NCBI GenBank assembly: GCA_039621445.1
Contig: CP154954.1
Span: 23,014,954 to 23,078,953, forward strand
Direction: 5' to 3'
Source: Euglena gracilis
Lineage: Eukaryota
DNA length: 64,000 nt
The position numbers and the translations under genes are program-made. The notes below the pieces were generated by a model. It had not been told where the DNA came from. It was given only the letters and a program-made list of their open reading frames with translations, and searched no databases. Shown here piece by piece: positions 4,200 to 35,141 of this stretch. The first letter of the stretch is position 1. Each line of letters starts with the position of its first letter.

Positions 4200-5760
4200 C
4201 GTCGGGCCAGACCCACTCCTCGGGTGGGTCTTCCCACTCGGCGTTGTTGATGACCTCCTGCTCCTGCTTCTTCACCTCCGCGACGATGACCACCACCTCA
4301 GCCGGGTTGCGGTGGAGGTAGTCCAGCAGGTGCACCTTGAGCTTCTTGGACTTGGCGTACTCGATCATCTGGTGAGAGTAGCGATGGAAGAAATTTTTCA
4401 ACGGCTCCCACGTGAGAGTCGGGTGGCCCTCCCACTTCACCTCGAACTCCCAGTCGCCGTCGTCTCGTCTGCGGTGCCGCCGGATCTCCTCCACCGTCCA
4501 CTCCTCGATGTCCACGTCTTCTTGCGGTCTGGCCTGCCGGTAGACGAACATCTTGGGCGGGCCCCACAGCCGCGTGTCATCGCGGTAGGCCTTCAGCTGG
4601 CAGCGGCTGGCCTCTTGGCGGCGGCCCTCCTCCAGCTCCAGCTCGTACGAGTGCTCGCCACGGCGCGCGGTGACCCGGGCTGGGCCAAGCCAATAGCTCT
4701 CGAGCTTCTGGCCCGCCCGCCTCCGAGGCCGGAGGTACCAGACCAGGTCTCCCTTGGCGAACTCCTCGAGGTCCTTCCTGCTCCTGTTCTTCTGGTCCGC
4801 TTGCCGCTTGTGGAGGTCGTTGGGGACGTCGGCGACCTTCTGGTCCACGGCCTTCTGTCTCTCGAAGAACGACACGGCATCCTCCACCATGACCGGGGCC
4901 TTGTACGGTACGCCACCAGTCCACCGATGCCGTCCATACAGCACCTCGTATGGACTCAGGCCGTGCTGCGCCTTGGAGTCGTTCAGCTTCTGCACTGCCC
5001 TGGGCAGGGACTCCACCCAGGTGATCTGGGCCTCGGCCTTCTCGCTCCGGATCCGCTTCTGCAACTGCGCACCGAGGGATTCCGCCCGCCCGTTCGCCGC
5101 GTGGTGGTACGCCTGGGCGTAGGCGTGGCGGATCCCGTGCAGGCCGCACATGCTGCGCCACCACGCGCCAGCAAAATGCGGCCCGCGATCACTCGTGATC
5201 ACGCTGGGCAGCCCGTGCGGCGACCACCACTCCCGGTACATCGCCTTGGCCACGGTAGCGGCGGTGAGGCCGCGCGTGTGGTGGGCCGTGGCCACGACCC
5301 ACCCACTGTGGCGATCGACGCAGGCGGCGAACACGTTGTACAGCTGCCCCTCGAAGTCCACCTATGGCATCACGAAGAGGTCGATGGCCACCGACGCCAT
5401 GAAGTACGGCGGGACGGGCGTTGGGCAGACCTCCAGCCACAGCGGCTGGTGCGGGTGCTCGGTGGCCTGGCACACCGGGCACGTCCGCTGCAGCCCGCCG
5501 GCCACCTTCGCCGCCTCCATCCGGTCCGCAAAGACGTAGGTGCGCTCGGCCTCCTCCACCAGCCCGTCCCCGCCAATGTGGCCGGAGACCGAGTGCTGCT
5601 GCCTCAGCACCTCCGCCAGCGGCCCGCTCGGCACACACCACCTCCCCGCCGAGACGAGCCGCCCATCCACCAGCTGTAACCCGCTGGGCCAGCCTGGGCC
5701 GTTGTGGGCCTGGTCCCAGACGGGCTTCCAGCGAGGGCACACCGCATATGCCTTGCTCCA
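4200..5760 (-). pseudogene. pol: Element A integrase plus C-terminal chromodomain; TAG at 5362
   Basis: H-x4-H..CPVC Zn motif, VAIDLF, ITSDRGPHF, NGRAE, WLGP; chromodomain EEWTVEEIRRHR..FEVKWEG..TWEPLKNF (~4390-4505). Confidence 0.9.
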
Positions 5761-6315
5761 GTCCATGTCGAAGACGTTGATGGACAGGTCAGGCTGCGGG
5801 GGCACGGGATCAGCGGTTGACGGCACACCTGCTGCGGGCGCTGCAGACGGGACTAACGCGGCCGGTGACGGCACACCGGCTGCGGACGCTGGGACGGGCA
5901 TGGCCGGTGATGACACACCGGCTGTGGGCACTGCGGGCGGTGCGATGGACTGCGGTGCGGTGGACTGTGGTGCTGGTGATGGGGCTGGCGATGGCGCGTT
6001 GGACGATGGTGCTGGCACGGACGCTGGTGATGCGGTGCACGACGCAGACGGCAGGACTGCCGCAGACGATGCCGACGGTGGGACTGCTGCGGCCGCAGGA
6101 GACCAGGCTGACGGGTGCATCTCGCGTGGGTGCTCGGACCGCGTACCGTGCGGGGCGTCTGCTGGGGCGTCTCGGGCGTTGCGCTGCGTGTCGAGGCGGC
6201 TGCGCATGGTGACGGCGATGTGGGACGCTGACGGGACCGTGGCGAACGACTGGAGCGGGAACAGCTGGATGAAGGCCAGCTCTCTCCCCTCCTTCAGGGT
6301 TGACCTCTCCACCTG

Positions 6316-8676
6316 TTACGCCTTGGTCTCCTCGTCCTCGGGATGCACCGCCTTCGGGGTGGACTTCTCGCGCAGCTTGTCCTCCAGGATGTGGGCCTTC
6401 ATCTCCTTCGTGTCGGCCTCGGTGCCGTGCCACGAGGTGTCGCGCCAGCCTTGTGAGGCCGGGTAGGCCCAGCGGGACATGGCATCGCCCACCACGTTGG
6501 TCTCGCCGAGGACGTGCACCACGGTGATGCGGAACTCGTTGAGCTTCACATGCCATCTGGCCCGCCTCCCCTGCGGGCCCACTCCGGCGACGTACTCCTT
6601 GTACCACGACTCCAGGCTGCGGTGGTCGGTCAGGACGAGGATCTCGTTGTCCAGCAGGAAGCCCGCCCACTTGTCGAGGGCGGCCACCACGGCATACGTC
6701 TCCTTGTCCCGGACATCCCACCGAAGGCGCTGCCCCTCGGTGAGCTTCTGGGACATGAAAGCCACCGGGACGGAGGCCCCCGGCCGCAGGTCCTCCACCC
6801 GCGGCACGCCGTCGATGTTCAGGAACTGCTCCAGCACCGCTCCGATGGCGTAGTCCGACGCATCGGTGCGCAGGACGAACGGCTTGGCTGGATCGATGTG
6901 GTACAGCTCCAGGTCGGCGACGAGGGCCTTCTTCGGCTTGTCGAACGCTTCCTTCTCCTGCTACGTCCACACCACTGGGTGCTTGGATCCCGCCTTGGTC
7001 AGCTCCCTCGGCAACTTCAGCTTCTCCTGCAACGGCGCCGCCAGCTCTGCGTACAGTCTCACATAGCCTGCATAGTAATTGCAGACGCCGAGAAACGCGC
7101 GGAGACTGCTGACCGTCGGCGGCAGTTGCCAGTGCTGCACCGCCGACAGTTTGCCTGGGGCAGGCGCCCTCCTGCCGTGCCCCAGGACATGCCCCACGAA
7201 CTCGACCTGCCTCATGAAGAGCTTGACCTTACGGCTGTCGCTGACCCATCTGTCCCTCTCCAAGGCCAGCAACGTCTCACGGACGTCTCGGGCGTGCTTC
7301 TGGTAGAACTCCTCGTCCGTCTCCTCCGCTCCCTGCCGCGTACTGACGATGATGTCGTCGAAGTACGGGCGGGAGTGCGCCTTCACCGCCGCGCAGGTGG
7401 CGTCGATGTCCCGCTGTAGGAGGGCGGGCCCGACGTTGATCCCCTGCGGGACCACACGCCACTGCCACAGCCCACCCGGCAGCTGGACGTTCGTCACCGG
7501 TCGGCTCTCCTCCGCCAAGGCCACCTGGTGGAACGCGTCCAGCAGGTCGATGGTGCTGAAGAGGGTACACGTCGCCTGCTCCGCCACGATCTCCTCCGTC
7601 AAGGGCAAGGGGTAGCTGTCCGCCATGATCTGCAGGTTCGTCACCGCGTAGTCACACACCATCCTCCACTTCCCGTTCTTCTTCCGAATCGGGAAGGCCG
7701 CCGCCCGCCACTGGCCTCTGCCCGGCTCCACCTTCCGGTCGCGGCGGCACTCCTCCTCCATCTCCCGCAGCGCCTCCAGCCGTTTGCCCTTCAAGTGGAT
7801 CAGATTCCCCACCACCGGCTGGGCGTTTGGCTTGAGGCGCAGCACCGCCATCCCGTGCTGGCCTCGGGGCGGCGGATCGGGGTGGACGCGGTCGCAGAAG
7901 ACGCGGCGCGGCCCTCGAACTCCTTGAGCATCTCGGCGCGCAGCTGGACGGCCAGCGGAATGCTGCTCCTCCGCCTCGGCCGTGAGCACCCCACGGACTT
8001 CCTTCGCCTCCTTGGCTGCGTCTATCAGCACCTTGGCCACCATTGCCTCTTCCTCGGCGTCCAGGGCCTCGTACTCCTCGTCTCCGTCGGGGCCATTGAC
8101 CCCGACGGTGAGCCTCATCTTCCTCACCTCGGCCTCCATCTCCTCCACCACTTCGGACGGCGTGCGGGGCAACGGCGACGGGCTGCGGGCTCGGACGGTC
8201 GCGTGGGTGCGTGTGCTTAGCGCTGCGATCTCGCTTGCTTCGGTGCCAGCGATGACCCATCGGGGGTCGTCGTGGAGCTGGAGCGCATCCCGCCAGGGTT
8301 GCATATCCAGCCTGTGCTCCTTCAGCCAGGGGTAACCCAGAATCAGGTCACACCCTATATCACCGTCACGGACGGTGATCTGGCTGTGCCCCCTCTTCAC
8401 TCCTCCACTCCTCTCTCCTTCGCTCCTCGCGTTGAACGCCAGGAGGACGTCCGCCTCATTGCTGCCGCCCGCCAGCAGGTCGCCGTTCACGGTGCGCTGC
8501 AGCAGCGGTCGCTCGCTGCGACGGAAACATCCGTTCGGGAACAAGTCTTGACGGATCAGCGACGTCTGCGCCCCCGTGTCGATGAGGGCCTTCGCCTTCT
8601 CCTCCCGGCCGTCGATCTCGATGACCACGTCCAGCATCAGCTGATAGCTGCCTCCCCGCCTCTCCATGCGGCCCAC
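6316..8676 (-). pseudogene. pol: Element A aspartic protease, reverse transcriptase and RNase H; TAG at 6961, TAA at 6316
   Basis: ALIDTGA; WRMVCDY, YPLP, IDLLDAFHQV, VPQG, YFDD, FVGH; TDASDYAIGAVL, FMSQKL, TDHRSL, GDAMSR. Confidence 0.93.
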
Positions 8677-8730
8677 CTGGAAGGACCGGCTGGGGCGGTA
8701 TTGCCACGGACAGACGGTGACCTTGTGGAC

Positions 8731-9924
8731 TTACCGCGGGGGGTGGGGCTCGTCGGCGGCGGTGGTGACGGGCTCGGCGGGTGGATCGTTGTGTGGCTCG
8801 GCGGGGGCGCACGATGATTGGCGGGTGCACGATGGCGGTCGTTGGCGCGGGGCTTGGGACAGCGCCGCTGCTTGCGGGGGCAGCGCCGTCCGGCTTGGCG
8901 GTGCGGTTGTGGACGCGGGTGCGGGTGCCGGCGACGGCGGTATCGCGCTGGGCGGCACGGCTGCTTGGCGGGTTGGTGGGGTGCGCTCGCACAGGTATCG
9001 GACTACACCTTTGGGAATGTGATACGCCTGCTCTCGGGTGCCGCGCTGCTGGAATGCCCCACCCACCTGCCATCGATGATGTCGTCGTCCATCTTGCTCC
9101 TCCACGATGTTCTCGCACTGGCCGTCGCACACGATGTCCTGCATGGGGGCCATGGAGTCCGCGCTCCAGAAGCGTGTGGGCTTGCGATAACCCCACGCCT
9201 CGAACATGCAGTAGTCCACATCGACGTACTGCATGTCGTCCACGACCTTGCGGTGGCGGAGTTTCCCATAGCGGGGATTCTCCAGCCACCACAGGGACGG
9301 CCGCAGGTAGGCGATGATCTCCTTCGTCTTGAGGACCAGGAAGTCGGCCTTCCGCAGCCGCCGCCTCCTGGTCGTCATCGCGCTGGAGTACTCGGTGCAC
9401 GGCGGTGAGGCGGCGACCAACTCGAAGTCGCCGGGCCAGTACTCCTCCCAGTACCGCCAGCGCCGCACGTCCACTGTCTGGTCCGCCTTCCACCGCGGGT
9501 CGGCGTCCACCGAGACGACGGAGTAGCCGAGCTTCTCCAGCGCCCGCTTCACCGACCACGTTCCGGAGAGCAGGTACAGTGCACACCTCTTTGGTGTCGA
9601 GGTTGTCGGTGACGCTGCGGCCGACTTCAGTGCCGCCCGGGAGGACGGTGCGCTCTGCGGGGGGAACGGGGCGCTGGTTGCTGCGGGTGCGGAGCGTGGT
9701 GCCGCTGACAGCGCTGCTGATGGTGGGGGCAGCGTCGTCCGGCTTGGTGCTTTCTGGCGCGGTGCCCGCTCCTGCTGCTGCCGGGCTGGGGGCGTCGCGG
9801 TGACACGATGCTGCGTAGACGATGGCACGGACGCTGCTGGCTTGGCGGGGGGCGAGGACTGCGCAGACGAGACGGGTCGCGCAGCAGACGGTTGCTCGGA
9901 ACGACGGGACTTCTTCTGTAACAC
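8731..9924 (-). pseudogene. Element A C5-cytosine DNA methyltransferase (domain ~8985-9590), in frame with protease through one TAA
   Basis: Degenerate motif I LYLLSGTWS, motif IV ASPPC, motif VI WLENP, VDYCMF..GYRKPTRFW; 54 nt in-frame gap to ORF 6961..8676. Confidence 0.88.
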
Positions 9925-10129
9925 GGACCAGTAGTTCTTTGTCGAAATCTGATGCGCCCCGCCTTGGCCGTGTGCTTCAGGGCACGGTCTCTCCCCTCCT
10001 TGGGAGATTTGGGGCTTGCTGGGTCTGGGGGGGGGTGCGGGGCTCTTGGGTGATTGCCCGCACGCTCACGCTGGCGTTGGGATTTGACGGCCGGCCCAGA
10101 CCCCCATCCCTGGGGCCTGGGCGGCCCGG

Positions 10130-17270: not shown

Positions 17271-17419
17271 GCCCGGGGGCGGTACGGTAGAATGGTTGGG
17301 TTGTTGGTTGTCAGTTGGTAAGGGTAACCGCTTGAGTATTGTCTGGCAAAAATACTTCTGCGGAAAGAAAGAATGATAAGAATCAATTGAAAAATGAAAA
17401 GAAAACAACATGGGTTTCC

Positions 17420-21838: not shown

Positions 21839-22673
21839 GAACCAGTGAGAGCCAACACCCCCCCCCCTGGATGTCATTTCTCCCAGTTTCTGTTCCAAAA
21901 AAAGGGTTTTGGGGTGAAAATTGGCCTGTGGTTGCCTGAGTTGAGGAGTCCCACCCCCCTGCCCCTTTTCCCACAGGTGAGGTGGGGGGAAGACAAACCT
22001 CACCTTCTTCAATTGAGCTTTCTTGATTGATTTGTTGTCCTTCCATTTGCAATTCCAATTGTAAATCCAAGTTCAATGATTGAATGTAATTGGTTGTAGT
22101 TGACACAACAAATGCAATGGTGAAACAAGTGAAGAGGAAAACCCTGTGAAAGAAATATTATTTTGATGCCCCTGATGGGCAGTTAAATTTAGGACTGAGT
22201 GCGCTGATTCCTAAGCGCTGTCAAATCCCAAATCCTAGCCCATTGCATCAAAATCAACCAACCCAAGTCAAAATCAAGGTTTCCTCCCTTGATTTTGATA
22301 AATTATTCTGAATTCCATCATTATTGAGCTTTTCAAACCCCTGCAAAAACTCCAGGAACTCAGGCGCCAATCTCTTAAAATTCTGTTCCAAGCGCTTGCA
22401 AGCGCTCTCACCAAATCCAACATTTTTCCTTAAAACCAAAGGAAAAATGCGTAAAAAGCTTAACATTATGCTAAATAGACCCAAAATCACCCTTTGGGAG
22501 TACCTAGCATCACTCAACCTCTCTCCTTGCACAACCAAACCATGGGCGCCCTAGGAGAGGGAATTTTAATGGAAACCTTTAGAAAGCCTTAAAATTAGAG
22601 CTAAACCACCCTTAAAAAGGCCTTCTAAAAAGGAAAACTCCGCCGCCCGGCGGTCGACCTCAAAAGGTCGTCA
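21839..22673 (-). repeat. Element B 3' LTR, proximal part; PPT at ~22674-22684
   Basis: Direct repeat of 34311-35141; minus strand AACGGGGGGAG|TGACGACC. Confidence 0.9.
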
Positions 22674-23034: not shown

Positions 23035-23250
23035 AGCTCCCCCCCCGAGGGGAAGTCCTTTGGGAAAAGCTTCCCCCCCCGGCGAGAGGTGGGCTTGACT
23101 TGCCCCCCCCCCGAGGGGAAGGACTTGGGTAAAAGATTGCCCCCCCCCCGGGGAAGAGGTGGGCTTGACTTGACCCCCCCCCGAGGGGAAAGCCTTGGTC
23201 AAATCCCCCCCCGGGCAAAGGGAGGGCTTGGCTTGCCCCCCCCGGGAGGT
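23035..23250 (+). repeat. ~65-70-bp tandem repeat x3 in B 3' UTR
   Basis: Units cccccccgaggggaa..gaggtgggcttgacttg. Confidence 0.75.
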
Positions 23251-23706
23251 TGGAAAAGGCAAATCACTTCATTTTTGGGAAATAATAACATAGCCCCCCC
23301 CCCCCCCAACCGATCAAGCCCACCGGGGTTTCGGGCCTCACTTGCGCAAAGGTGGGGGGGTACGATAAAAATAGCCAATCAAACCGATTGGAGAAAGTGA
23401 CCCCCCACCTCGAGTGCTACCGACCCGTGAGAGGGGAGAAATAAAAAATCACAGATTCCTCTTTCATGACTGTGGGCGCAACGGGGCACAGTGTCGTTCG
23501 AGTGTTGTCAGGTTACACCTTCGGCCTGTCCATCGCTCGTGGAAGCTTGATATTTCAGACTTCGAATAATACTTGAGAATCCGTCTTCAACTCGTCCAAC
23601 TCAGAGTCCCGGCTCCAGGTTCCGTCCTGAGTAAGTACGAGGAGGCAGGAGGCAGGCAGTTGTATATACATCCCATTCCCCATATTTCCAATGCCATGCA
23701 AAGATA

Positions 23707-24750
23707 TTAATACCACCAGGGGTAGGGCTGCGGTGGGGGGTATGGGTACGGTTGGGGGGGGGTACGGTGGTTGATGTGTGTGGCAGAAACGATTGCAGCT
23801 TGGGTGGTTTTGTTTCCACTGCACTCCTCCGTGCCCTTGCCGATCCCCTTGTAAGGTATGGGCTTGGGAGCCCAGGGACGGCGGGAGGCCGGAGGGGCTG
23901 TGGACTTGGAGGCGGGCTGAGCTGGGGGCTTGGGTTCGGGGTTGCTTTTGGGCTTCTTTGCTGAAGCCGGTGCACCTTCCGCCCTTCGCTTGGGAGGTGG
24001 GTGTGTGCGGTGGTACTGCCGCACAATTTCCTTCCCCGTTTCCACCTGGATTCCCCGATTGGCCTTGCCCTTGACTGGGCGTATGGGGCAATCCATCTTA
24101 CGGTGGCCCAGCTCGCCACAAAACCAGCAGGTGGCAGGGGGTAAATCCTCCTCCAACCGTCCTTTATTTACAAAAGGGTTCTGCTCGGCTGTACCGATGA
24201 GCAGACCGTGGCCCTTCCCTACCCTTCTCTCACTCCAAACCAGGAGTGAGATTAACAGATGTACCCGTTGAGGAAATCGGCCTCCTCCGACCACAGGAGG
24301 AGGTACCGTTCGCCTCGGAGTTCCTTCCATAATGCAACATGGACCCACACCATGTCCGCATTTGGGAAATGAACAAGCACATGGGACCTTTGTGCTTGCT
24401 CGAGGTAAAATCCTCGGACCCACCTCCAGTGGTTTTGCCACCGAGAACTTTCCCCCATCACTTCAATCCAATCGGGTACACGGGATGGGAACCAAACCGG
24501 CACCCATCCATTTATGTCCACATAAGCAAAACCATCCACATCGACAATTCGCTTGACGATGCGGCTTTTGCCTTTTGATGTTGGCAAACTCATCCCGCCC
24601 CCATCCGGGGTTGGATGAAATGGTAATTGCCCTTCTCCACCCATCAAAACAATAAAATACGGATCCCCGGCTAGTTCCTCCCTAGCCGTTCGGATGTCCG
24701 GATACAAACTTTCGATAACCACTCCGCTCTCGGGGGTTCAGGGGCATATC
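23707..24750 (-). CDS. Element B 3' accessory ORF (frameshifted; 24252..24722 plus 23707..24441) with CCHC zinc knuckle
   Basis: W-rich globular-looking segment followed by CWFCGELGHRKMDC and a basic Pro-rich tail; lies between pol and PPT. Confidence 0.6.
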
Positions 24751-25077
24751 GAAAAATAGCGTCCCAAGCTTCCGAAAATCCTTCGGTTGCTTGAACCCCA
24801 TCCAAACCCGGACAGGGTTGATGGATGAGTTCTGGAAATAAAAACTCAAAAATGACGAAGAAGCACTGCCCTCATCATTTGTCTGAAGTGCCTTTTACAG
24901 TTCTGGGGTGACCTCCTCCTCCTCCGAGGGTGCCGCCTCCTCCTCTGTGGGGTTTTCCGTTGGCACGTCCACCTGCATCTGTGAAGGGGCACGGAGTGGG
25001 ACCTCCCCCTCCCCAGGCAACCACTCCAGGCCCTTTTTCACCTCCCTTTCCCCCTTTTTTCAGGTTGCCGTTGTTTT

Positions 25078-28000
25078 TTAATCCTTAGAGACATCTAAAG
25101 GCAACCCTTTTCCCAGGCAATACGCTATTACGTCGCTATTGTACTCCTGGAGAAAATGTTCCACCGGTTCCCAATTCGCCTCCTCAAACCCTTGCCACTT
25201 CGTTAAGAAAAACATTTTTCCCTTAACGAACTTGTGGTTTAGGATTTTATCCACTAACCAGGTATCTGGGGCACCTTCCGCCTCAGGTGCCGTCCGCCGG
25301 TGGAAAAATAGGGGGATAGGCTTATCTGATGTGGGGTCCTCCACATACACCTTCAAAGCCTTCCTATGGGCCTTCATAATATAGCCCGGTTTAAGCTCAA
25401 TTAGGTAGGAGTGAATTCCCTCCCTTGCAGTAACCTTGCAAGGGCCCAACCAAAGGGAATCCAATTTTGTGCCACTATCGGGGGGTCTCAGGTACCACAC
25501 CAGATTTCGCACCTCCAATGGCCCCCAACCGTCTAAACCACGGTTGGCCCGAGCACATTGCTTGGCATGCAAATTATTCATTTTGCCAGCCACTACCAAA
25601 TCAATTTCTCTTTGCCGAGAGAAAAATGATCTGGCATCTTCACAATCCCTTAACGGTTCATAAGGTAAACCACCCAGTGAACGGTGCCGACCGAACAAGA
25701 TTTGAAATGGGCTTAGGCCACTCTCCCCCGGCGTATCATGGATACGGTCTAGTGCTTGGGGGAGGGCTTCAACCCATTTCAACTTGTCCTCAACCTGAAT
25801 TTTCATAAGCCGTTCCATTATTTGTTGCGCAGCCCTCTCCGCCCTACCATTCGCCTGGTGATGGTAGGCCTGGGAGCAGGCTTGCCTAATTCCCATCAAG
25901 GCACACATTGTCTGCCACCAACCGGAGACAAAATGTGAGCCTAGATCGGAAGTAATAATGGAAGGGAGGCCAAAAGGTCGCCAAGCATGCAACAGCATTT
26001 GCTTGGCTGCCTTGGCTCCCGTAAATCCTTTTGCTAGGTGGGGGATCGCCACTATCCAACCGGAGTGACGATCCACACACACAAGCATGCAGTCGTAAGA
26101 ATTACCTTCCCACTGCACGAGGGGCATGCTGAACATATCAAGGGCCACCGAATACATTACGGCTGGGGGTATGGGTGTAGATTCCACTAAACCCTTGAGA
26201 CTCGCCGGCCTTCGGCACGCTTGGCAAGTCCCACAAAGGCCCATGACTCCTTTAGCAACATCTCGAGCGAGTGAGTGATCAGCCCAATCATACCTAAGGG
26301 ACATGCATTCCCATAGCCTTGGGAATCCCACATGCCCTTGGTATGAGTGGTGATCCCGAATGAGCTTTTCTTGGAGAGATTTGGGCACACAAATCCTCTC
26401 CTTGAAAAACATTTTGTCACCAAAAACCTTGACATTTTCAGGCCACGGCACCTTTGAATCCTGGGTAGCCTGAAAAATTGGTGACCAACGGGGACATTTT
26501 AAATATTCCTCCTTCCACGATAAATCCCACACAGAACCAGGGGGGATGGGTGAGGAATCGGTTGTAGAAGTGGCTCCCCCCCCCTCACCACTCAAACCAC
26601 CCGAAGACAACACAGGTGATTCTCGGTCTGCCCCAGGTACCTCAGTGGTAGCCGCGGCAGCAGGTGCAGGGGTTGGCATTGTTGGCGAAGCTGGTATAGA
26701 AGTGGGTGTCAATGGAAAATACTCTCCCCTTGGCTCTTGGACCTCCTCCAGAAGATTTGTTTCATTCCCTAACTCGTCAACCCGAGTTAAGAATGAAACA
26801 TGTTTTCCCTTTTCTCCCTTGGGGGTGGAGGTTGCACCCAAAACCTGGGGTTTTGTTCCTCCAAGTGGTTCTGACTTCCTATCCCCCGGTCGTGTGCACC
26901 GTCCACCCGCGTCCCCGGACCCCGTGGTAGCACCACCCCGTGTGGTGACTCCACGAATGTATGCGTTGGCTGTGGTTGGTTGGTCCACCAACCGTAGCCA
27001 CATACATTCGGCTTCCTCCATTTTTTCTGTTTGAATGACTTCCCTCATTTCCTCGGTGTCAAGGGCTGACCCATGCCTTGAAATGTCCTTCAAGGCTTGG
27101 GAGGCCGGGTAAGCCCATCTTGACAAAAAATCGGCCATGGTATTCTCCCGCCCCGGGATATACCCAACCGACAGGTCAAATTTTGATAAAACCCGATGCC
27201 ACCTAGCCCTTCTCCCAATGGGACCACTTGGCGTGTCTGGAACCTCTCTAGCCCAAGATTCTAGAGCCTTGTGGTCCGTGAGAACCAGGACGGGCTGCAG
27301 CCCAATCCATGATTTCCACTTTTGTAAGGCTAGGATTATGGCATAAGTCTCCTGTTCCCTAGGTACCCAGTTTCTTTGGCTGCCCGTTAGCTTCCTACTC
27401 ATGAAGGCGACAGGCACAGTACGCTTGGTCCGTACGTCTTCAGGAGTAGGAGCCCTGTCCTCCCCAACCAATTGTTCAAGGGTGGCACCAACCGCATACT
27501 GGCTGGCATCCACTCTTAAAACAAATGGTTTGTCTGGCTTAACGCGTTGTAAAATTAATTCACTGCACAACAGTGCTTTAATGTTTTCAAATGCCTCAAT
27601 GTCGGATGGTTCCCAAGAAATCCTTTTCTTGGAACCTTTCTTGCCGTCCACTCGTGAAACTTTGAGCTTATCCTGAAGGCAAGCGACAATGTGGGCATAA
27701 TCCTTCACATAGGAGCTGTAATAATTTGTGAACCCGAAAAAGGCACGTAGACCCGTGATTGTTTGGGGTAGCTCCCATTTTTCAATGGCCATTAGCTTTC
27801 CAGGGGATGGTTTTCTCGCCCCACCACCCAGAACATGGCCACAAAACTCAACTTGTTTTACGAAAAGGTGACATTTTCTTTTGTCGGCTACAAAGCTGTC
27901 TTTTCGTAAAACTTCAAGGACTCTTCGCAAATCCTTGTCATGTGCTGCGAGTAAATCCTCACCAGGACCCAGTCGAGTTCCAATCAAAATGTCGTCGATG

Positions 28001-29479
28001 TAAGGATCAGCCACGTCCCCCACCGGGAAGAGGCGATCCTCCATCATTTGCTGAAATTGCTGGCTTGCGTTTGTTAGACCCATCACATTAACCTTCCACT
28101 GAAAAAGACCGAGGGGGGTACTGCAACATGTGATGGGCCGGCTTTCCGGGTCCAACGGCTGTTGGTGGAAAGCCTGCCGTAAATCCAAGATGGAAAACAT
28201 CATGTTTCCACCTTGTTTTACCAGGAGGTGTTCAATTACGGGAAGGGGGTAGGACACACTCCTAGTTTGACTGTTAGGCCCCCGCATGTCTACCACTCCC
28301 CTCCGTTCACCTCCTTTTTTCGGCACTACAAATGTTACGGACAGCCATTCCGAAACTGTTCCCTTGGGTAATCGCTCAACAAATTTCCGGTCCCACCATT
28401 CCTGTGTGACCTTTTTGTGAGCTTCAAATCTTTCACCGTGTAAGACAAAGGGTCTTTGCCTTGTGGGTACAGCCCCCTCCTTCAGAGGAATCTGGGCGTA
28501 ACCATAAGGTCCCCGTACGGGAGGGTCAGGGGGTACCTCCGTACCCAACACTTCCCCTTCATAATCCTGAAAAATTTTATCCCGAAATGCTGGCACCCTG
28601 GGGTCTTCCTTCTCACCCGAGTCGCGAGCCTCGATTATGGCATTTACTGCTTTGTCCTCGGCTGGCGATTCGGTGAGATGCTTGGCTATGGTATGCAATT
28701 CCTTCTTGCCAAGTAATTTTGGTTGCGTATCAAAGCCTTGCAAGGGTAGGTGCAAATTCATTTTTTGCAGGTCCAACCACACCTTTTCATTTTCAAGGGA
28801 CTCCGTGGTTGGTGCGTTTTCAGGGGATTCTCCGAAGTCAGAAACCACAACCCCAATTCTTTTTTGTGAATTGTGTTTTTTCTTCCCCTTATGGTATTTC
28901 CTTTTCCGATTTCTTGTATCCCACCCGTACAAGAAAGTCAGATTAGGGTTGTCAAAAACCGAGGCCTTATGGTGTGGGAACACACCCAAACCATGTTCGG
29001 CTAACCATGGAAATGATAATATAGCATCTACCTCAGTATCTGCGAGGTAAAATTCCCCTTCGCGGTACAAGGCCTGGGTCCCCGCCTGCCCCGTGCCCCT
29101 GCGTTGAAAAACCAACTCCAACTTAATACTGGTCGCCCCCCAAAACACATTGGCCGTTGGCAGCCACCAGCCGAATAGGCATTCGTGGTGACCTGGCCAA
29201 ATGTTTTGGAACGATGGACCTTTTGCCCAGGTTCACCTGGGCTCCCGTGTCCACCAAAACTTTGAGCTGCTTGGTATCTCCGTTAGGGAGATACGTCTGT
29301 GATGACATCAAAAGTTGCAGCTCGTTTTCAATGGGCAACACCTGATTAACCTTCAATGTGTTGGCCAAATGACAGCAACGGTCTGGAATTTCCCATTCCT
29401 CAAAATGCTGGGAATTTTGGGAAGTTTCTTTGGGCTGCCGCCCCAGAAAATCCCTAGCACTTAGGAGATAATCAATCAC
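25078..29479 (-). CDS. pol: Element B pol: PR (VLVDTGA, frameshift ~29140), RT, RH, INT, chromodomain
   Basis: 1356-aa open frame: LDLRQAFHQ, YIDD, VDASQYAVGATL, TDHKAL, HHSYQGH..CGTC, ITSDLGSHF, NGRAE, DTWLVDKILNH..TKWQG..NWEP. Confidence 0.97.
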
Positions 29480-30213
29480 CAGGGGGGAATTCTTCCTTTT
29501 AGTCGGGGAGTAAACTTCATTTTTCTGCCCCCCAACAATTCACGGTGCCGGAACTGCCCATTGTCCCCCATAATCAGGTCAGGACACGATTCGCCATCGC
29601 ACAACACCGACCGTTGTTGTGAAATGGCTGGGCAGCACCAGAAACGTGTGGGCTTTTTATAACCCCAATCCGAAAACTGACAATAATCAATGTCGATATA
29701 GGGCAGGTTTTTCACCACCTCCCTATTTCGCAAAAGACCAGTGCGGGGGTTCTCCAACCACCACAACTTTGGCTGAAAATAATTTATAATTTCCAGGGCT
29801 TTCTCCACCAGGGCATCCGCCTGGGAGAAATCCTTCGGCCTGGGGTTATAGGCTGTGGAATAAACATTACAGGGGGGACTAGCGGCAATAACCACAAAAA
29901 ATCCAACCGGGTATCGCCTGTAGTCCCAGGTCAAAATGTCTGTGTGGGGGTGGAAGTCCGTCCTGGGGGCATTTTCAATTGACAAAACTTCATACCACCG
30001 TTCTGCCAACCGCCTCCCTACTGAACCCGTGCCAGCGAATAAGTCTAATGCCTGAGGTCGCTGGACTGATGGTAGGGGGTTGGGCTGTGGCAGGTTTGAA
30101 TGCAAAACAGGAACCCTTGAACATTTTCCTTCCCTCCAGGAGTATCGGGTCCGATTCAAAAATCTGGGGGGCTGATCCAAAGAATGTGTTTTACCACACC
30201 CTGAATCAGCCAT
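29476..30213 (-). CDS. Element B C5-cytosine DNA methyltransferase
   Basis: Intact motif I LDLFAGTGS, motif IV ASPPC, motif VI WLENP, IDYCQF..GYKKPTRFW; adding one C to the C6 run at ~29482-29487 fuses it to PR (RIPPLVIDYLL, cf. A HIPKGVVRYL). Confidence 0.92.
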   Translation of the reverse strand: MADSGCGKTHSLDQPPRFLNRTRYSWREGKCSRVPVLHSNLPQPNPLPSVQRPQALDLFAGTGSVGRRLAERWYEVLSIENAPRTDFHPHTDILTWDYRRYPVGFFVVIAASPPCNVYSTAYNPRPKDFSQADALVEKALEIINYFQPKLWWLENPRTGLLRNREVVKNLPYIDIDYCQFSDWGYKKPTRFWCCPAISQQRSVLCDGESCPDLIMGDNGQFRHRELLGGRKMKFTPRLKGRIPPW

Positions 30214-30267
30214 AAAATCATGTACAGCCCAGTTTTTTGAATCAGAAATATTTACACCGTTTTCCTC

Positions 30268-30330
30268 ACAGGGGGGAGAGACACGGCCATGGGCAGCCCC
30301 CCCTTTCTCAAACTGCCCCTGGCCCCCCTA
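30268..30330 (-). promoter_or_regulatory. Putative gag stop-codon readthrough signal (UAG-G plus pseudoknot)
   Basis: TAG followed by 38 sense codons in frame to the MTase ATG; GGCCAGGGGCAG pairs with CTGCCCATGGCC, and loop AGGGGGG pairs with downstream CCCCCCT. Confidence 0.65.
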
Positions 30331-33300
30331 TTGGGCCCCAGGGGGAGAAGAGGTGGGCCCACCCTCCTTTGACCATGCACCCCCCTTGCCTGAGGAATTT
30401 CGCTGAGTGGCTGGCTGCCCTTTACCCTTGGGCTGCCCCTTGCCTTTTCCATTATTTTGCCAAAATTCCTTAGATTTAGCAAGGGCCTCACTCAGCGGTT
30501 TATCACACTCATAAAAATAATGTCCACACTCCCCACAGTTGAAGCATGGATACAAGGACCTGCCCATACCCGATGCCTGCGGGGTCCAGGTCTGCCCCCC
30601 CTTGCCTTGCCGGGCTGGGGGTGCTGGACTTTGGGTTCGCGACCATGGAACTGCTGCTGATCGCGAAGACGAAGAAGGGGACCTGCCCCGTGGGGCTGGC
30701 TGGGCTGCCCCCTTATCGCCCTTCGCAGCTGGCTGTGGGGCAGACTTTGAGGTGTGACCCTGCCCCCCAGCTGCTGGTGCTGAAACAGATGTTCGGGACA
30801 CCGGGGGGGTCTGGCCTTTCTCCAACGCCTGTATTTTCCCCGAGCCTTTTGTTGTCGATTTGCTGAATAATCTGGGAAAATGGTGCTGATTCAAAGCCAA
30901 ATCCTGCTTCTCCCGAAGAGCTAACTTGCCCTCGGCAAAAGCAAACATTTCCTCAACAGTCATTAGTTGTTCCACCAATTCGGCGTTGAGGAAATTTTCC
31001 ATTCCCTGCAATTTCCTTCCATTTACGGCTGTTAATTTCAGTGCCTCCTCCGAAGAAACTGAAATAAAAAGGCAAATGGCACCAGGGCTTTTGATAACCA
31101 CTTTCCGTGGATCAATCCCCCCAGTGATCTGGCTCACACTCCTTTTAATCCCATCCACCGTGGGATTTGGTATCCCTGTGAGCCTGACAATGGGTTGTTT
31201 TTCCGGGCTCGGTTATACTCCTCTTCTATGCAAAACGTGCTTAAAAAAGGAGGAATTCTTTCCAAGAATAATCTCCGAGCCTCCCCGGCTGTGGCATCCT
31301 TAACATGGTGCCAGGCACTGCAAAATTTGATCCCAAATTCGTGCAGATCAGCCCGGGTTATTTTTCCTTCGTTTACCATGGTTACCTCTTGCCATATTTT
31401 CCGAGCCGTTAGCCCCTTACTCGAGGCATAACGGTTCTGGAACTGGGCCAATATGGTGGGGTAACTTAATTTAGCTCCATTCAACCGATAGTGCCTGATT
31501 TCCTCCCTTAATCTGCGTCCTAAACATGCCTCAAAAACCTGCAGCTTTTGCAAATCAGAATACGGTTTCCCTGATGTCAACCTATCCCAGTAAAGATTCC
31601 AATCTACTTCAAAAACTTGCCAGGAAATGCTGCCCGATTCATCAAAATAGGGCTTAGCACCTCCCTGCAAAATTTCAAAAGGTACTGGGTCGCCAATAAA
31701 AGGAAAACCCAACCCGTTACCTGGGTTGGCTGCAGCCCCCCCTGTCCCGATAGGCCCAATCGAGAAAGCAGGGGCTGCAGAAACATGTGGGGGGACACAC
31801 AATGACACCAAAGAAACCACTGGCGTATCTTGCATGTCCTCCAAAACAAAGCCCCCCTCAGCAACTAAGGGAGGGGAAATGTTTGAACCTGCAGATTTAT
31901 TTTGTAGAACATTCAGATCTGAAAAAGCTGGGTCAGCACTGGGCACCGTGCTGGCCAGAGGGCTGGAAGGCTGCCCCAGGGGCTGCTGCTGTCCAGCCGA
32001 CGGCAGGCCCAGCCCCCTTGGCAGCCCGTGAGCAGGCAGCGCCTGGCCTGCTGGCTGGCCAAGTTTCTGGGCTAGCTGGACGACGGGCTGCTGGGCCAGC
32101 TGCTGCCCAGGCTGTGGCAGCTCCACTGGGTGCAGGGGCTGCTGGCTGCCCTGCCGCAGCCACCACATGTCAGAAATTTTCTGCAACACTCCTCTCGGTT
32201 CTGCACTTGGGTGTACGGGTCCATTTTTTTGTAAATCCTGCAGCACTTTCTGTAACTCGAAAGTGTTCCCCCCAACTTTTGCAAGTCCCCGCCTTAATTC
32301 CTCCACCAGCCCACCAAATTCTTTCTCCTGGGAAAAAATCTGCTGATAAACACTCTGAAAATTCTGCTGACAATCCGTCAACAGTTTTTGCATTTCTGAG
32401 TGTCGTTTCCCTGCTTCATCTGAAATATTCTGGTGCAGTTTTTGAATACCCCCACCAAAACCATGGAGGGCTGTATTCATCGCTGAGTTTTGTTCACCCA
32501 GCTGGCGAACATAATCGGTGAACTGCTGAAGCTGCTGAGCCTGGCCCTGGACCGTACCTCGCAGCGACACCAGGTCAGCCTGAACTTCAATGATTCTGGC
32601 AGCGACAACGGCCAGCTCCTGGAGAGTTTCTGCCTCCCCCCCCTGAGCTGGCTGGGCGGCTTTAAAATTCTCAGCGAACCGCTGAAAATTTTCAAGCACG
32701 AGATCCTTAATTGGCAAGGCAGCCACCTGATTTTGCACTTGTTTCAAAATTTCCTGTGGCAGGTTGTCCAAAATTCGTAAAAACTCCTGCCTCAGTGCCA
32801 AAAACTGATCACGGCTCGAAGAAAACTGCTGGGCCAGTTTTTCCTCAAAACTTTTTTCCTGCCCGACAAAAAGTTCGAGTGCCTGTGCGTCTATTTTTTG
32901 CACAGAAATTTGCACCTGGGCCTCACATTTTTTCTCAAAAAGTTCAAAAATATGGAGGCAGTCAGCCCTGGCCGTTTCTTCGATTCGTGCAGCCATGTGC
33001 TCTACCAGGTGGACGTCGACTGCAGGGGGTTGTTGCTGCTGCTGCTGCTGCTGCAGAACCCACTCTTCGTTGGCTTTTTGCAAAGCCAAAACCCGAAAAG
33101 TCAGGTGCTGCACAGCCCACTGGAGGTCTCTGTTACTTTGTAAAAATTGCCCCCAGGGGTCTTCAAATCCTGAAGATTTTGTGAACCCCCCTGGGGGTGG
33201 CTTCGGAACTTTCATAGGCTGGGGGTTGGACCTCCTCCTCACCCCCCTCGATGAAAATATGAGGAGGCGGGGGGGCTGCAGCAGCTGCTGGCTGACCGTG

Positions 33301-33960
33301 ATCAACCTCACGGTGCAGCCGTTTTTGCTGAACTTCATCACTGCCTGGTGATGAAGCCGGTGTTCGGGGTCGTCGAGCAGAAGTAGAGCTGGGCTTGTCC
33401 TTCGGGTTTTCCTCTGCCTGCTCGACTTCTGCTCTGACCCGTTCGCTGCTGTTCCAGTTATTTTTATCGTTTAAGCCCAGCACATTGACCTGTGCTTGCT
33501 TTTCAAAGAAAACTGGGCTGGGGTTATCACGCCCCTGCCCTGCCGAGGCACTTGCCGTTTCCTTCGCCAGCCCATCTACCTGGGATGGTTGGGAAAACTG
33601 CAAAAGTGCCACCGGCTCTTGGGCTGGTGTTTGAGAAACTGGTTGAGCTGGAGGCAAAGGCAATGCAAAAGCGGGTAACGATGGCAGATTCCCTAAATTT
33701 TGCACCCATGAAAAGTCTGGGAGAGGTTGCAACTCAGGCAGCACAAAACCATACCCCATATTTTGCAACGGCAAAACCCCCGAAAAAGGCTCTGGAAAAC
33801 ACGGTTGGTTGGAAATGACAACCTGGCCATCCCCACCCTGTAATTCCAACATCTGTCTCATATTTGTAGGGGTTCTGAGTCCAGCCAAACTGGTTTCGGG
33901 TCCCAACTCCCTGTGCCCCGAAACTCCAATCGTCAGATTTGCCATCTGAGATTTGGCCAT
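30328..33960 (-). CDS. gag: Element B gag (Q-rich coiled coil, capsid-like region, CCHC knuckle); two homopolymer frameshifts
   Basis: ORFs 33163..34044, 31134..33341, 30328..31158; KPYFDE..W..F...W; CFNCGECGHYFYEC. Confidence 0.85.
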
Positions 33961-34021
33961 TGGCTGATAATCAAAGAAAACATTCTGAGCAGGGATTTCC
34001 AACCCAAAATTTCTGACAGAA

Positions 34022-34036
34022 GGCTGAAGGCCACCA
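34022..34036 (-). promoter_or_regulatory. Element B primer-binding site TGGTGGCC (tRNA-Ile-like)
   Basis: Immediately follows LTR end TGAAACA; tRNA assignment rests on 8 nt only. Confidence 0.65.
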
Positions 34037-35141
34037 TGTTTCACACCCGTGCTGCCATGTCCCTCGGCAGCACTGGGGTGAAGCGGAAACCCCCGCCCTG
34101 GGCCAGTTTCATGCGTAGGATCGTTTTTTGGCTCCTCGAGCCGACTTGTGTCAGAAATTTTTTCCCATTCTGGCCCCGCCCTGTGGCCGAAACTGGGCCA
34201 TCATTTCCAAGGAGGAACCTCCCAGTGGACCCTCCCCGACCCCTGAGGGGGGTGTCACTGGGATCTCCAAGGGGGGTGCCTTTGGGGTTTTAACCCCTCC
34301 CTGCTCAGCTGAACCAGTGAGAGCCAACACCCCCCCCCCCCTGGATGTCATTTCTCACAGTTTCTGGGCCAAAAAGGGGGTTTTGGGGTGAAAATTGGCC
34401 TGTGGTTGCCTGAGTTGAGGAGTCCCACCCCCCTGCCCCTTTTCCCACAGATGAGGTGGGGGGAAGACAAACCTCACCTTCTTCAATTGAGCTTTCTTGA
34501 TTGATTTGTTGTCCTTCCATTTGCAATTCCAATTGTAAATCCAAGTTCAATGATTGAATGTAATTGGTCGTAATTGACACAACAAATGCAATGGTGAAAC
34601 AAGTGAAGAGGAATTCCCTGTGAAAGAAAATATGATTTTGATGCCCCTGATGGGCAGTTAAATTTCGGATTGAGTGCGCTGATTCCTAAGCGCTGTCAAA
34701 TCCCAAATCCTAGCCCATTGCATCAAAATCAACCAACCCAAGTCAAAATCAAGGTTTCCCCCCTTGATTTTGATAAATTATGCTGAATTCCATCATTATT
34801 GAGCTTTGCAAACCCCTGCAAAAACTCCAGGAACTCAGGCGCCAATCTCTTAAAATTCTGTTCCAAGCGCTTGCAAGCGCTCTCACCAAATCCAACATTT
34901 TCCCTTAAAACCAAAGGAAAAATGCGTAAAAAGCTAAACATTATGCTAAATAGACCCAAAATCACCCTTACCTAGCATCACTCAATCTCTCTCCTTGCAC
35001 AACCAAACCATGGGCGCATTAGGAGAGGGAATTTTAATGGAAACCTTTAGAAAGCCTTAAAATTAGAGCTAAACCGCCCTTAAAAAGGCCTTCTAAAAAG
35101 GAAAAACTCCGCCGCCCGGCGGTCGACCTCAAAAGGTCGTC
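34037..35141 (-). repeat. Element B 5' LTR (~1105 bp)
   Basis: Matches 21839-22673 plus 18032-18307; ends CA; terminal T lost or mutated. Confidence 0.92.

Follow-up and report, generated by a model that had tools for sequence, protein, structure and literature searches.

A dead chromovirus-type LTR retrotransposon of Euglena gracilis whose Pol very probably begins with a compact C5 methyltransferase

In a 64,000-nucleotide stretch of the Euglena gracilis genome (the window; GenBank assembly GCA_039621445.1, contig CP154954.1, positions 23,014,954 to 23,078,953), we examined two retrotransposon copies, elements A and B. We hold with good confidence that element B is a dead LTR retrotransposon of the Ty3/gypsy chromovirus type, whose Pol runs in the order compact C5 methyltransferase (about 200 aa), protease, reverse transcriptase (RT), RNase H, integrase and chromodomain. 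Methylation is usually seen as a weapon of the host against transposons, a view that is reversed when a retrotransposon carries its own DNA methyltransferase.

Structure of element B

All feature coordinates of element B are given on the minus strand.

21839-35141, minus strand: element B, whole, LTR to LTR
34311..35141, minus strand: 5' LTR, direct repeat with 21839-22672
31137..33470, minus strand: probable N-terminal part of Gag (coiled-coil, capsid-like), a 778-aa ORF upstream of the knuckle ORF
30331..31212, minus strand: C-terminal part of Gag with a CCHC zinc knuckle (30505-30546)
30328..30330, minus strand: in-frame TAG between gag and Pol, candidate readthrough stop
30082..30327, minus strand: 82-aa linker from the TAG to methyltransferase motif I, from the translation
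29462..30081, minus strand: compact C5 DNA methyltransferase domain spanning motifs I to X, with a frame break at the C run 29482-29487 in motif X
28990..29461, minus strand: linker and retropepsin-type protease (DTGA 29240-29251; AILSFPWL 29002-29025)
25081..28989, minus strand: RT, RNase H, integrase (H2C2 and core) and chromodomain by Pfam, in a 1384-aa ORF that ends in TAA
23710..24462, minus strand: extra 251-aa ORF with a CCHC knuckle (zf-CCHC), between pol and the 3' LTR
21839..22672, minus strand: 3' LTR, direct repeat with 34311-35141

The two LTRs are 96.06% identical over 838 alignment columns with 11 gaps. Inspection of their ends revealed no target-site duplication, and the termini are not TG..CA. 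A purine run lies upstream of the 3' LTR, and the primer-binding site has no tRNA assigned to it. The protease-RT-RNase H-integrase order with a C-terminal chromodomain is present, the Pfam matches lying in order on the 1384-aa ORF (RVT_1, E 6.4e-17; RT_RNaseH, 2e-23; rve, 1.3e-9; Integrase_H2C2, 5.8e-5). The Chromo match of element B (E 2.4e-4, 21.4 bits) falls under the 25.1 cut-off, and the chromodomains of two relatives, P0011 and P0015, score 35-37 bits. The extra 251-aa ORF matches zf-CCHC with E 2.1e-4 and 21.7 bits. No ORF of element B matched PF05869 (DAM) in Pfam, and a DAM domain is absent from element A as well.

The CpG observed/expected ratio, in a single comparison, is 0.53 for element B and 0.90-1.03 for neighbouring DNA, a depletion that could equally be attributed to host methylation. 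The window as a whole is a mosaic of nested repeats; 14 further ORFs examined in it gave transposon domains only, and an Rfam search of it returned zero families.

The methyltransferase domain

The preliminary description of this DNA, made from the letters alone, had listed four intact methyltransferase motifs, and we located all of them in a 283-aa ORF at 29479-30327.

30022-30048, minus strand: motif I, LDLFAGTGS
29869-29880, minus strand: motif IV, AASPPC
29746-29754, minus strand: motif VI, ENP
29638-29661, minus strand: motif VIII, YKKPTRFW

The SAM-binding loop of motif I (FxGxG type) is present, as are the Pro-Cys nucleophile of motif IV, the Glu of motif VI and the Arg of motif VIII. 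P70, C71, N111 and R146 do not vary across 25 aligned sequences, in which E110 reaches at least 90% conservation, and 30 of 31 long homologues retain the full set of five motifs. A second SPPC occurs by chance in the linker, at 30268-30279, and the 82-aa linker itself has no counterpart in element A.

The Pfam model PF00145 matches element B with E 0.0017 and 18.3 bits, against a curated threshold of 22, and covers motifs IV-VI only; relatives exceed that threshold (P0011, 26.7; P0015, 26.4; the viral L002, 35.2). An AlphaFold model of the domain (pLDDT 87.2, pTM 0.85) was used in a Foldseek search of the PDB, in which DNMT3B/3A came first (E 7e-8, TM 0.58), followed by DNMT1 and M.HaeIII. The predicted structure supports a C5 methyltransferase fold for the catalytic domain. 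Between motifs VIII and X, the predicted target-recognition region spans about 25-40 aa.

Conservation of the methyltransferase-protease-RT fusion

Homologues of the element B methyltransferase reach E-values down to 1.3e-96, and a family profile collects 797 cluster representatives at E<=1e-30, far beyond what chance would give. The 35 long homologues all have the methyltransferase inside a fragment of a retro-element polyprotein. As the proposed fusion predicted for the family, 20 of them encode it ahead of the protease in a single ORF, one of these being P0001, an 82% identical relative. Two metagenomic relatives also place the methyltransferase first in single ORFs of 1949 aa (L090) and 945 aa (L087). 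Sequence comparison thus supports a methyltransferase-protease-RT fusion that is real at the family level. Across the family the methyltransferase occupies several positions in Pol, sometimes beside a DAM methyltransferase; P0011, P0013, P0014, P0015, P0022 and others combine DAM, a C5 DNMT and a chromodomain (PF05869, E 9.6e-12 in P0011 and 4.2e-8 in P0015). A metagenome scan for close DNA relatives confirmed 32 loci, none above 57% identity, and the contig that encodes P0001 was not retrieved; relatives occur in both freshwater and marine metagenomes.

The window itself holds a divergent second copy.

4339..10065, minus strand: element A, in the order methyltransferase, protease, RT, RNase H, integrase, chromodomain; GC 67%; decayed

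In tblastn comparisons with element B, all segments of element A fall in frame -2, with 43% identity over 186 aa of methyltransferase and 38-39% in pol. Element A has in-frame stops at 8731-8733 and in RNase H and integrase, and its motif I is degenerate (LYLLSGTWS) and does not fit the FxGxG pattern of the SAM-binding loop.

These copies bear on the idea that the juxtaposition is an artefact, either a viral or host methyltransferase gene nested into the element or a misassembly. The nested-repeat setting would suit such an origin, and the gaps in the LTR alignment, many of them in homopolymers, are typical of indel-prone assemblies. However, the same domain order recurs in elements A and B, which are only about 40% identical to each other, in 35 long proteins from other sources and in the metagenomic loci, and the methyltransferase shares its reading frame with gag and RT. 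We consider an artefact effectively refuted, with a negligible chance of being correct.

Frame breaks in element B

As written, this copy of element B is unable to make the protein, because at least three breaks, which fall in gag, in motif X of the methyltransferase and within the protease, interrupt its frame. The breaks in gag and protease were not mentioned in the preliminary description. In motif X, the 283-aa ORF ends at a TGA (29476-29478) just past a run of six Cs (29482-29487), and the -1 frame from the run reads LVIDYLL (29462-29482) and continues to the protease DTGA, so that the motif is split as IPP/LVIDYLL. The 82% identical relative P0001 reads IPPLVVDYLL unbroken and is continuous through the break sites of both motif X and the protease, and the corresponding region of element A reads IPKGVVRYL. 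The one-nucleotide correction that had been put forward for the C run, which joins the two frames as IPPLVIDYLL, is borne out by these sequences. Because the break falls inside motif X, we read it as damage within a domain and not as a gene boundary.

A programmed -1 shift at the C run, whether by slippage of the ribosome at U CCC CCC U or by stuttering of the polymerase, would instead keep protease and RT below the level of the methyltransferase. A -1 slip on CCC CCC yields exactly IPP-LVIDYLL, and in contigs from other sequencing runs an extra letter at 29481 is rare in X1 (8.73 of 58624 depth) and absent from X3 (0 of 381.6), but most of this depth stems from contigs that do not cross the C run. 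The depth that does cross it, taken at 29488, is 198.8 in X1 and 0 in X3, and X3 is thus uninformative on the motif X break. Crossing contigs mostly carry the extra letter: they are one letter longer in X5 (1 of 1) and X15 (1 of 1), and in X1 the letter lies in or beside the run in 109.9 + 8.7 of the 198.8 crossing depth, the larger part just beside it. Since the shift site lies inside motif X, the unshifted product would also miss its last motif. The frame runs unbroken in P0001 and in each of the 20 homologues that place the methyltransferase ahead of the protease, and element B has two further breaks, neither at a slippery site. We therefore ruled out programmed frameshifting as the main reading and regard it as very improbable.

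Within the protease, at about 29127-29140, element B reads GGDQY and then a stop where P0001 reads GGDRCFKLELNL. Behind 29127, two more letters are present in contigs of X3, X5 and X15 at all depth and in 18812.5 of the 40730.4 depth in X1. The gag break, at about 31198, separates the 778-aa ORF from the gag ORF that it overlaps in a different frame. Two letters fewer are present there in the contigs of X3 and X15, at all depth, and in 22.8 of the 32.5 depth in X5, which by frame arithmetic puts both ORFs in one frame. The 778-aa ORF has weak coiled-coil Pfam matches only and is probably the N-terminal portion of Gag, with a coiled-coil and a capsid-like region. The gag ORF matches no Pfam family at E<=0.01, and its CCHC knuckle reads CFNCGECGHYFYEC.

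The gag/Pol junction

The 283-aa methyltransferase ORF opens at the codon next to the gag TAG and in the same frame. Two earlier proposals, that the frame is continuous with gag through one TAG and that the methyltransferase is the N-terminal domain of Pol, are both upheld by this arrangement. We rejected the possibility that TAG is a sense codon here, since the 1384-aa pol ORF contains zero in-frame TAG codons.

Three metagenomic relatives, described as unrelated and independent, share the layout of a gag-like ORF, a single in-frame stop and Pol, with TAG in L081 and L084 and TGA in L083. Each has a hairpin 3-8 nt after the stop. Compared with shuffled sequence, the post-stop hairpins have z-scores of -0.29 in element B, -2.16 in L081, +1.12 in L084 and -1.39 in L083, which lends them no statistical support, and the four post-stop sequences are too divergent for covariation analysis. 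A pseudoknot like that of MLV was set aside as a lead only, the minimum-energy folds being no better than shuffled for element B and L084.

The shared layout matters because the TAG could be one more lesion of element B. Functional elements would then make a fused Gag-methyltransferase-Pol or use another mechanism, and the enzyme would be as abundant as Gag. The copy does have at least three other lesions, its post-stop hairpin is not significant, and in P0026 a knuckle, protease and methyltransferase apparently share one ORF. Against this, three independent relatives keep a single in-frame stop at the equivalent junction with a hairpin close behind it. With less weight, no contig difference affects 30328-30330 among the 40 best-supported (89 more lie outside that set) from four runs. 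We think it unlikely, if by no means far-fetched, that the TAG is a lesion, and we favor readthrough of the stop.

Relationship to viral and phage enzymes

The compact domain had been suggested to resemble viral and bacterial enzymes more than DNMT1 or DNMT3, and searches of viral collections agree with the viral side of that suggestion. In IMG/VR, relatives are encoded in 141 of 176 candidate stretches; the 80 that were kept are 34-46% identical, with E down to 1e-42. These relatives stand alone as ORFs of about 195-290 aa, with D5-type primase-helicases and N6 methyltransferases as neighbours; their contigs have a median GC of 0.32 and lack RT. Named phages contribute 33 matching records. 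The best match in BFVD is a Tetraselmis virus 1 protein (E 7.7e-16, TM 0.73, rmsd 2.6, 33% identity), ahead of DNMT3 (TM 0.58) and DNMT1 in structural similarity.

Matches to eukaryotic enzymes are weaker by comparison. The family profile aligns with DNMT1 only in part, over motifs IV-VI (E 2.8e-4), and reaches DNMT2 with E 0.009-0.011; DNMT3 is absent among its sequence matches. Pfam detected none of the companion domains of Dnmt3 (PWWP/ADD) or Dnmt1 (BAH/RFTS) in element B. Judged by sequence and companion domains, its methyltransferase does not belong to the Dnmt3 or Dnmt1 family.

We also placed the domains in a tree, for which FastTree was the only method and a single phage protein served as the root. 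A single branch (SH-like 99) has all 31 long retro-element sequences, both window copies and three of the four metagenomic transposable-element sequences on the same side, and this side is sister to 63 IMG/VR sequences and 22 others. An enzyme of the compact viral/phage branch, in place of a host Dnmt3, links the gene pools of DNA viruses and retro-elements.

Discussion

We propose that Pol would be made by occasional readthrough of the gag TAG. As the preliminary description had proposed, the enzyme would by analogy be made at Pol stoichiometry, as part of a minority Gag-Pol product that is packaged, and would be released by the protease and present in the particle during reverse transcription. 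The freed enzyme could methylate the element's own cDNA or the integration site, probably at CpG, and a new copy may thereby enter the genome already marked. The position as the first Pol domain, right behind the gag stop, offers a concrete, testable candidate route by which an epigenetic writer could be packaged alongside the genome under replication.

The domain might instead be carried without methylating DNA: it may methylate RNA, as DNMT2 does, serve as a DNA-binding module or be an inactive relic. The tiny target-recognition region fits this reading, and the DNMT2 matches of the profile fit an RNA methyltransferase. In the parts of a 2018 study drawn on here, two of four retrotransposon DNMT types, SymbioLINE-Dnmt and KnitGypsy-Dnmt3, likewise gave no methylation signal in yeast (PMC5890265). 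Several observations nevertheless speak for DNA methylation: the catalytic Pro-Cys, the ENP and the Arg of motif VIII show little or no variation; the methyltransferase is conserved as much as RT (82.3% identity between element B and P0001, compared with 84.5% for RT/RNase H); the stand-alone viral relatives adjoin other DNA methyltransferases; and element B is CpG-depleted, which we count on the same side. We judge a role other than DNA methylation improbable.

A broader reading, which we advance tentatively and think has the smaller chance of being right, is that a widespread, largely undescribed chromovirus-type clade captured a giant-virus or phage "mini" C5 methyltransferase once and moved it through at least four Pol positions, with or without DAM. 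The particle-borne readthrough enzyme would methylate nascent cDNA at CpG, so that insertions arrive pre-methylated. If this single-capture reading is true, pre-methylated insertions would amount to self-silencing or camouflage, a strategy taken over from DNA viruses. The family is in any case large and environmentally widespread, as its cluster representatives and metagenome loci attest, and a C5 methyltransferase of 200 aa with a minimal recognition region would, if active, be a possible small module for epigenome editing.

Comparison with known systems

In gammaretroviruses of the MLV type, Gag and Pol lie in one frame with one UAG between them; behind the stop come a spacer of about 8 nt, rich in purines, and then a stable G+C-rich structure or pseudoknot. 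Element B resembles them in having gag and pol in one frame with a single UAG stop between, which by analogy would be read through, but differs in that the structure after its stop lacks energy or covariation support.

Compact viral C5 enzymes match the element B domain in size and fold; examples are the Tetraselmis virus 1 protein A0A2P0VN45 (218 aa), Haloferax tailed virus 1 gp60 (218 aa) and Bacillus phage JBP901 gp140 (221 aa). The phage proteins are 29-35% identical to it over motifs I-VIII, and the DYC and TR.W motifs are common to the element B domain and its IMG/VR relatives. The viral enzymes are free genes in DNA-virus genomes, whereas the element B domain is a module of a retro-element polyprotein. 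In motif VIII, the retro-element domain reads KPTR(F/I)W and the viral set usually K(K/R)RTRIW.

Retrotransposon-borne DNMTs were already published in 2018 (de Mendoza et al., PMC5890265), and the comparisons below follow the portions of that study cited here. KnitGypsy-Dnmt3 of Klebsormidium nitens is, like element B, a Gypsy-type LTR element with a C5 DNMT inside its Pol polyprotein, and its proposed role is self-methylation of the retrotranscribed copy (PMC5890265). Its DNMT is a eukaryotic Dnmt3, whereas the enzyme of element B is compact, at about 200 aa, and has its nearest relatives among stand-alone viral enzymes; element B further differs in having the methyltransferase as first Pol domain, ordinary LTRs and a chromodomain. 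In Symbiodinium, SymbioDIRS-Dnmt3 encodes its DNMT in the same ORF as RT and methylated CG de novo in yeast, and SymbioLINE-Dnmt carries an "orphan" DNMT and has CG-depleted copies (PMC5890265). Element B shares the CG depletion of the SymbioLINE copies, but the Symbiodinium backbones are DIRS (tyrosine recombinase) and LINE (ORF1), in contrast to the Ty3/gypsy backbone of element B.

Related elements, named EpiLTRs, are known from Euglena gracilis and Cymbomonas tetramitiformis; they combine an LTR backbone with DAM, a DNMT and a chromodomain, and their DNMTs were placed sister to DNMT4 (bioRxiv 10.64898/2026.05.21.726589). They share with element B a Ty3/gypsy-like organization, a chromodomain and a C5 DNMT inside Pol; unlike them, element B lacks a DAM domain. 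The preprint starts from DAM, and the parts of it considered here do not describe DNMT-only chromoviruses, an N-terminal position in Pol or a compact enzyme of viral type. The EpiLTR DNMT clade is likely the same as that of the element B homologues, several of which, P0011 and P0015 among them, have exactly this set of three domains. As far as these sources extend, methyltransferase-bearing retrotransposons are already known, and the enzyme lineage and layout of element B have been described in part.

A methyltransferase domain at the start of Pol

Element B, a chromovirus-type Ty3/gypsy retrotransposon, carries its C5 DNA cytosine methyltransferase as the first domain of Pol. Its parts are arranged as follows.

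21839-35141, minus: element B, LTR retrotransposon of 13.3 kb containing the methyltransferase
21839-22672 and 34311-35141: LTRs, 96.06% identical over 838 columns with 11 gaps
33470-31137, minus: 778-aa ORF, the first of the ORFs in 5' to 3' order
31212-30331, minus: 294-aa ORF with a CCHC knuckle, ending in a TAG at 30330-30328
30327-29479, minus: 283-aa ORF sharing the frame of the knuckle ORF
29539-29126, minus: 138-aa ORF with the protease motif DTGA, in the -1 frame
29232-25081, minus: 1384-aa ORF, in the first frame again, with RVT_1, RNase H, Integrase_H2C2, rve and Chromo domains, ending in TAA
24462-23710, minus: 251-aa ORF carrying another CCHC knuckle, between the end of the pol chromodomain and the 3' LTR

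No target-site duplication was seen at the ends of the element. The 778-aa ORF (31137-33470), coiled-coil and capsid-like, probably supplies the N-terminal portion of a Gag that would be unusually long at about 1050 aa; inspected by eye, the knuckle ORF seems to open with an RRM-type fold. A tandem repeat of three to four units, each 63-70 bp long, lies just inside the 3' LTR (23036-23266), and in its units runs of C8-10 are followed by GAGGGGAAG.

The four methyltransferase motifs named in the preliminary description are all intact in the minus-strand ORF: LDLFAGTGS (30022-30048), AASPPC (29869-29880), ENP (29746-29754) and YKKPTRFW (29638-29661). At 18.3 bits (E 0.0017), where the cut-off is 22, the Pfam PF00145 match is insufficient by itself to call the domain; judged by sequence similarity, homologues with E-values down to 1.3e-96 leave no doubt about its identity. 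The ORF ends at a TGA directly behind a run of six C (29482-29487), past which the -1 frame reads LVIDYLL, the rest of motif X. The single-nucleotide homopolymer correction proposed earlier to join the methyltransferase to the protease agrees with P0001, an 82%-identical relative that reads IPPLVVDYLL without interruption. The counterpart in element A, a divergent copy in the window, is IPKGVVRYL. Because P0001 and element A both read through motif X, the break sits within the methyltransferase domain and not at a gene boundary.

Fusion to Pol is a feature of the family

A search for longer homologues returned 35 proteins, whose domain order we assigned by profile and motif mapping. The methyltransferase lies upstream of the protease in one ORF in 20 of them, with a DAM-type adenine methyltransferase in between in five and in front in one. 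It is downstream of the protease in seven; three have the order DAM-methyltransferase-RT, three methyltransferase-RT, and in two the domain separates RNase H from integrase. Several homologues are complete Pol proteins of 1.6-1.9 kaa with a chromodomain at the end, and the metagenomic retro-element loci L090 (a single 1949-aa ORF) and L087 share the methyltransferase-first layout. Element A (4339-10065, minus, GC 67%), 38-43% identical to element B, has methyltransferase, protease, RT, RNase H, integrase and chromodomain in one frame, which is interrupted by stops; motif I of this copy is degenerate. Between element B and P0001, the methyltransferase (82.3% identity over 175 aa) is as conserved as RT/RNase H (84.5% over 746 aa), and 30 of 31 long homologues retain all five motifs. 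Taken together, these several lines of evidence argue that the methyltransferase-protease-RT fusion is a family feature, as the earlier reading had it, and that the family does not keep the methyltransferase as an ORF of its own. Since the C5 domain may precede the protease, follow it, or be flanked by RNase H and integrase, there has been extensive domain shuffling within Pol.

P0003, P0011, P0013, P0014, P0015, P0022, P0024, P0030 and other homologues combine the C5 enzyme with a DAM-type N6-adenine methyltransferase in varying orders. Element A, at 67% GC, lies in a GC-rich block (2001-12000); element B, like most of the window, has about 50%.

The Gag-Pol junction

Gag and Pol of element B share one frame and are separated by a single TAG, just as had been described for gag and the methyltransferase. 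The 1384-aa pol ORF has no in-frame TAG, so TAG is a stop in this organism. In the metagenomic retro-element relatives L081 and L084 a TAG likewise separates a gag-like ORF from the methyltransferase; in L083 a TGA stands between gag and a protease-methyltransferase. Behind each of the four stops, after a few purine-rich bases, comes a hairpin, with energy z-scores of -0.29 (element B), -2.16 (L081), +1.12 (L084) and -1.39 (L083), two of the four being indistinguishable from shuffled sequence. Gammaretroviruses make Pol by stop-codon readthrough. With moderate confidence, we take readthrough of this kind to be the most likely mode of expression, because the three metagenomic loci share the stop arrangement.

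A compact enzyme with viral relatives

The methyltransferase domain is only about 200 aa long, with 25-40 residues between motifs VIII and X; in the alignment this stretch holds two nearly invariant cysteines. With these two cysteines come an invariant DYC and a conserved histidine (positions 134, 161 and 166 of the first sequence in the domain alignment A1; window about 29578-29688), a set that may form a putative zinc site replacing the normal target-recognition domain. An AlphaFold model built from 25 sequences reached a pLDDT of 87.2, and its PDB matches, to the DNMT3B/3A catalytic domains (E about 1e-7, TM 0.58), DNMT1 and M.HaeIII, confirm the modelled C5 methyltransferase fold.

The suggestion that the compact domain resembles viral or bacterial enzymes more than DNMT1/3 was also upheld, for viral and phage enzymes. 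Among solved structures the sequence profile finds its best match in DNMT1, at an E-value of only 2.8e-4 over motifs IV-VI, whereas 141 of 176 candidate stretches in IMG/VR encode relatives; the 80 kept, including two giant-virus bins, are 34-46% identical (E 1e-31 to 1e-42). When predicted viral structures are compared, the closest is that of a putative cytosine methyltransferase from Tetraselmis virus 1, 218 aa long (E 7.7e-16, TM 0.73, 33% identity). The versions in named phages are more distant (33 records, about 220 aa, 27-35% identity) and include gp60 of Haloferax tailed virus 1 and gp140 of Bacillus phage JBP901. Searched by profile, 1.84 billion cluster representatives yielded 797 matches at E<=1e-30, and 3213 when the limit was E<=1e-10; among the 150 representatives listed, many are about 200 aa and match from the first residue. 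A protein-language-model atlas returned the same clusters (about 210 aa, mostly viral), a lead only.

In IMG/VR the relatives stand alone, as ORFs of about 195-290 aa, and the contigs that carry them are AT-rich (median GC 0.32). Beside them lie D5-type primase-helicases, N6 methyltransferases and one TET-associated glycosyltransferase; no RT was found near them. At the viral loci L002, L003 (L003:1148-2575), L008, L012 and L021, the neighbours are D5-type primase-helicases and D12 and N6/N4 methyltransferases. Such neighbourhoods suggest that uncultured DNA viruses carry clusters of DNA-modification genes.

We placed 168 domains in a FastTree phylogeny (each row spanning 165 or more of the 205 profile positions, identical rows removed). 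One side of a branch with SH-like support of 99 holds the full set of 31 long retro-element proteins, the two copies from the window and three of four metagenomic TE loci, together with 36 short proteins of unknown context; L090 falls outside on a long branch. The sister group (support 86) comprises all 63 IMG/VR rows and 22 others, and deeper branches are again stand-alone genes. The best reading of this tree is a single capture from a DNA-virus-type gene followed by shuffling within Pol, which stops short of proof because the root is one phage protein and the method a quick one.

The window copy is dead

We compared the window with contigs of at least 90% likeness from four public sequencing runs (X1, X3, X5 and X15). 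Within the protease, at 29127, the other copies are two letters longer (the whole depth of X3, X5 and X15; 18812.5 of 40730.4 in X1); P0001 is continuous here, GGDRCFKLELNL, versus GGDQY-stop in the window. The C run has one more letter in X5 (6.89 of 6.89), X15 (23.3 of 23.3) and two X1 contigs, and a further 109.9 of 198.8 depth in X1 has the extra letter immediately beside it. The extra letter is missing at 29481 from most of the depth in X1 (58624) and from the whole depth in X3 (381.6), in contigs that stop short of the run: seven bases on, depth is 198.8 in X1 and 0 in X3, so they do not span it and do not speak for most copies in those runs. Two letters fewer at 31198 (all depth in X3 and X15; 22.8 of 32.5 in X5) put the 778-aa and knuckle ORFs into a single Gag frame; compared with the other runs' contigs, these ORFs are out of frame in the element B copy only. 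This copy is dead, and its frame breaks may be genuine mutations or assembly errors in homopolymers.

The window as a whole is pieced together from nested repeats, and no host gene was recognisable in its 64 kb. In a tandem array (55629-63244), the repeat unit measures about 1.97 kb, its copies are 95-97% identical, and each contains RT/RNase H fragments of another Gypsy-type element. DNA adjoining the 5' LTR of element B is repeated at 96% (13927-17345 and 35142-38418), and 11739-13466 and 20784-19058 form an inverted duplication.

Proposed mechanism and known systems

Beyond the architecture, conservation, fold and viral affinity documented here, we infer a series of steps. A minority of ribosomes would read through the gag TAG to give Gag-methyltransferase-PR-RT-RH-INT; the methyltransferase would be packaged along with Pol, freed by the protease, and could then reach double-stranded cDNA or the integration site. 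The CpG observed/expected ratio of element B is 0.53 overall and 0.34-0.41 in the LTRs, against 0.90-1.03 in adjacent DNA and 0.96 in element A with its degenerate motif I. In this one comparison the depletion fits CpG methylation of the lineage, and methylation by the host would give the same result. Self-methylation of retrotranscribed DNA was proposed by de Mendoza et al. 2018; in that paper (PMC5890265), only SymbioDIRS-Dnmt3 showed de novo CG methylation in yeast, SymbioLINE-Dnmt and KnitGypsy-Dnmt3 being inconclusive.

These three elements, as presented there, have made retrotransposon-borne C5 DNMTs known since 2018. Within the openly accessible literature searched, including passages of PMC12344493, PMC9998398 and PMC6338049, we found no description of a DNMT-only chromovirus with the enzyme first in Pol, no recognition of the enzyme as a member of the compact viral/phage branch, and no account of its several Pol positions; such absence is not proof of novelty. 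A May 2026 preprint (10.64898/2026.05.21.726589) describes "EpiLTRs" of Euglena gracilis and Cymbomonas that combine DAM, DNMT and chromodomain. Homologues of the element B methyltransferase show this same combination, and its enzyme clade has therefore very probably already been seen in that work.
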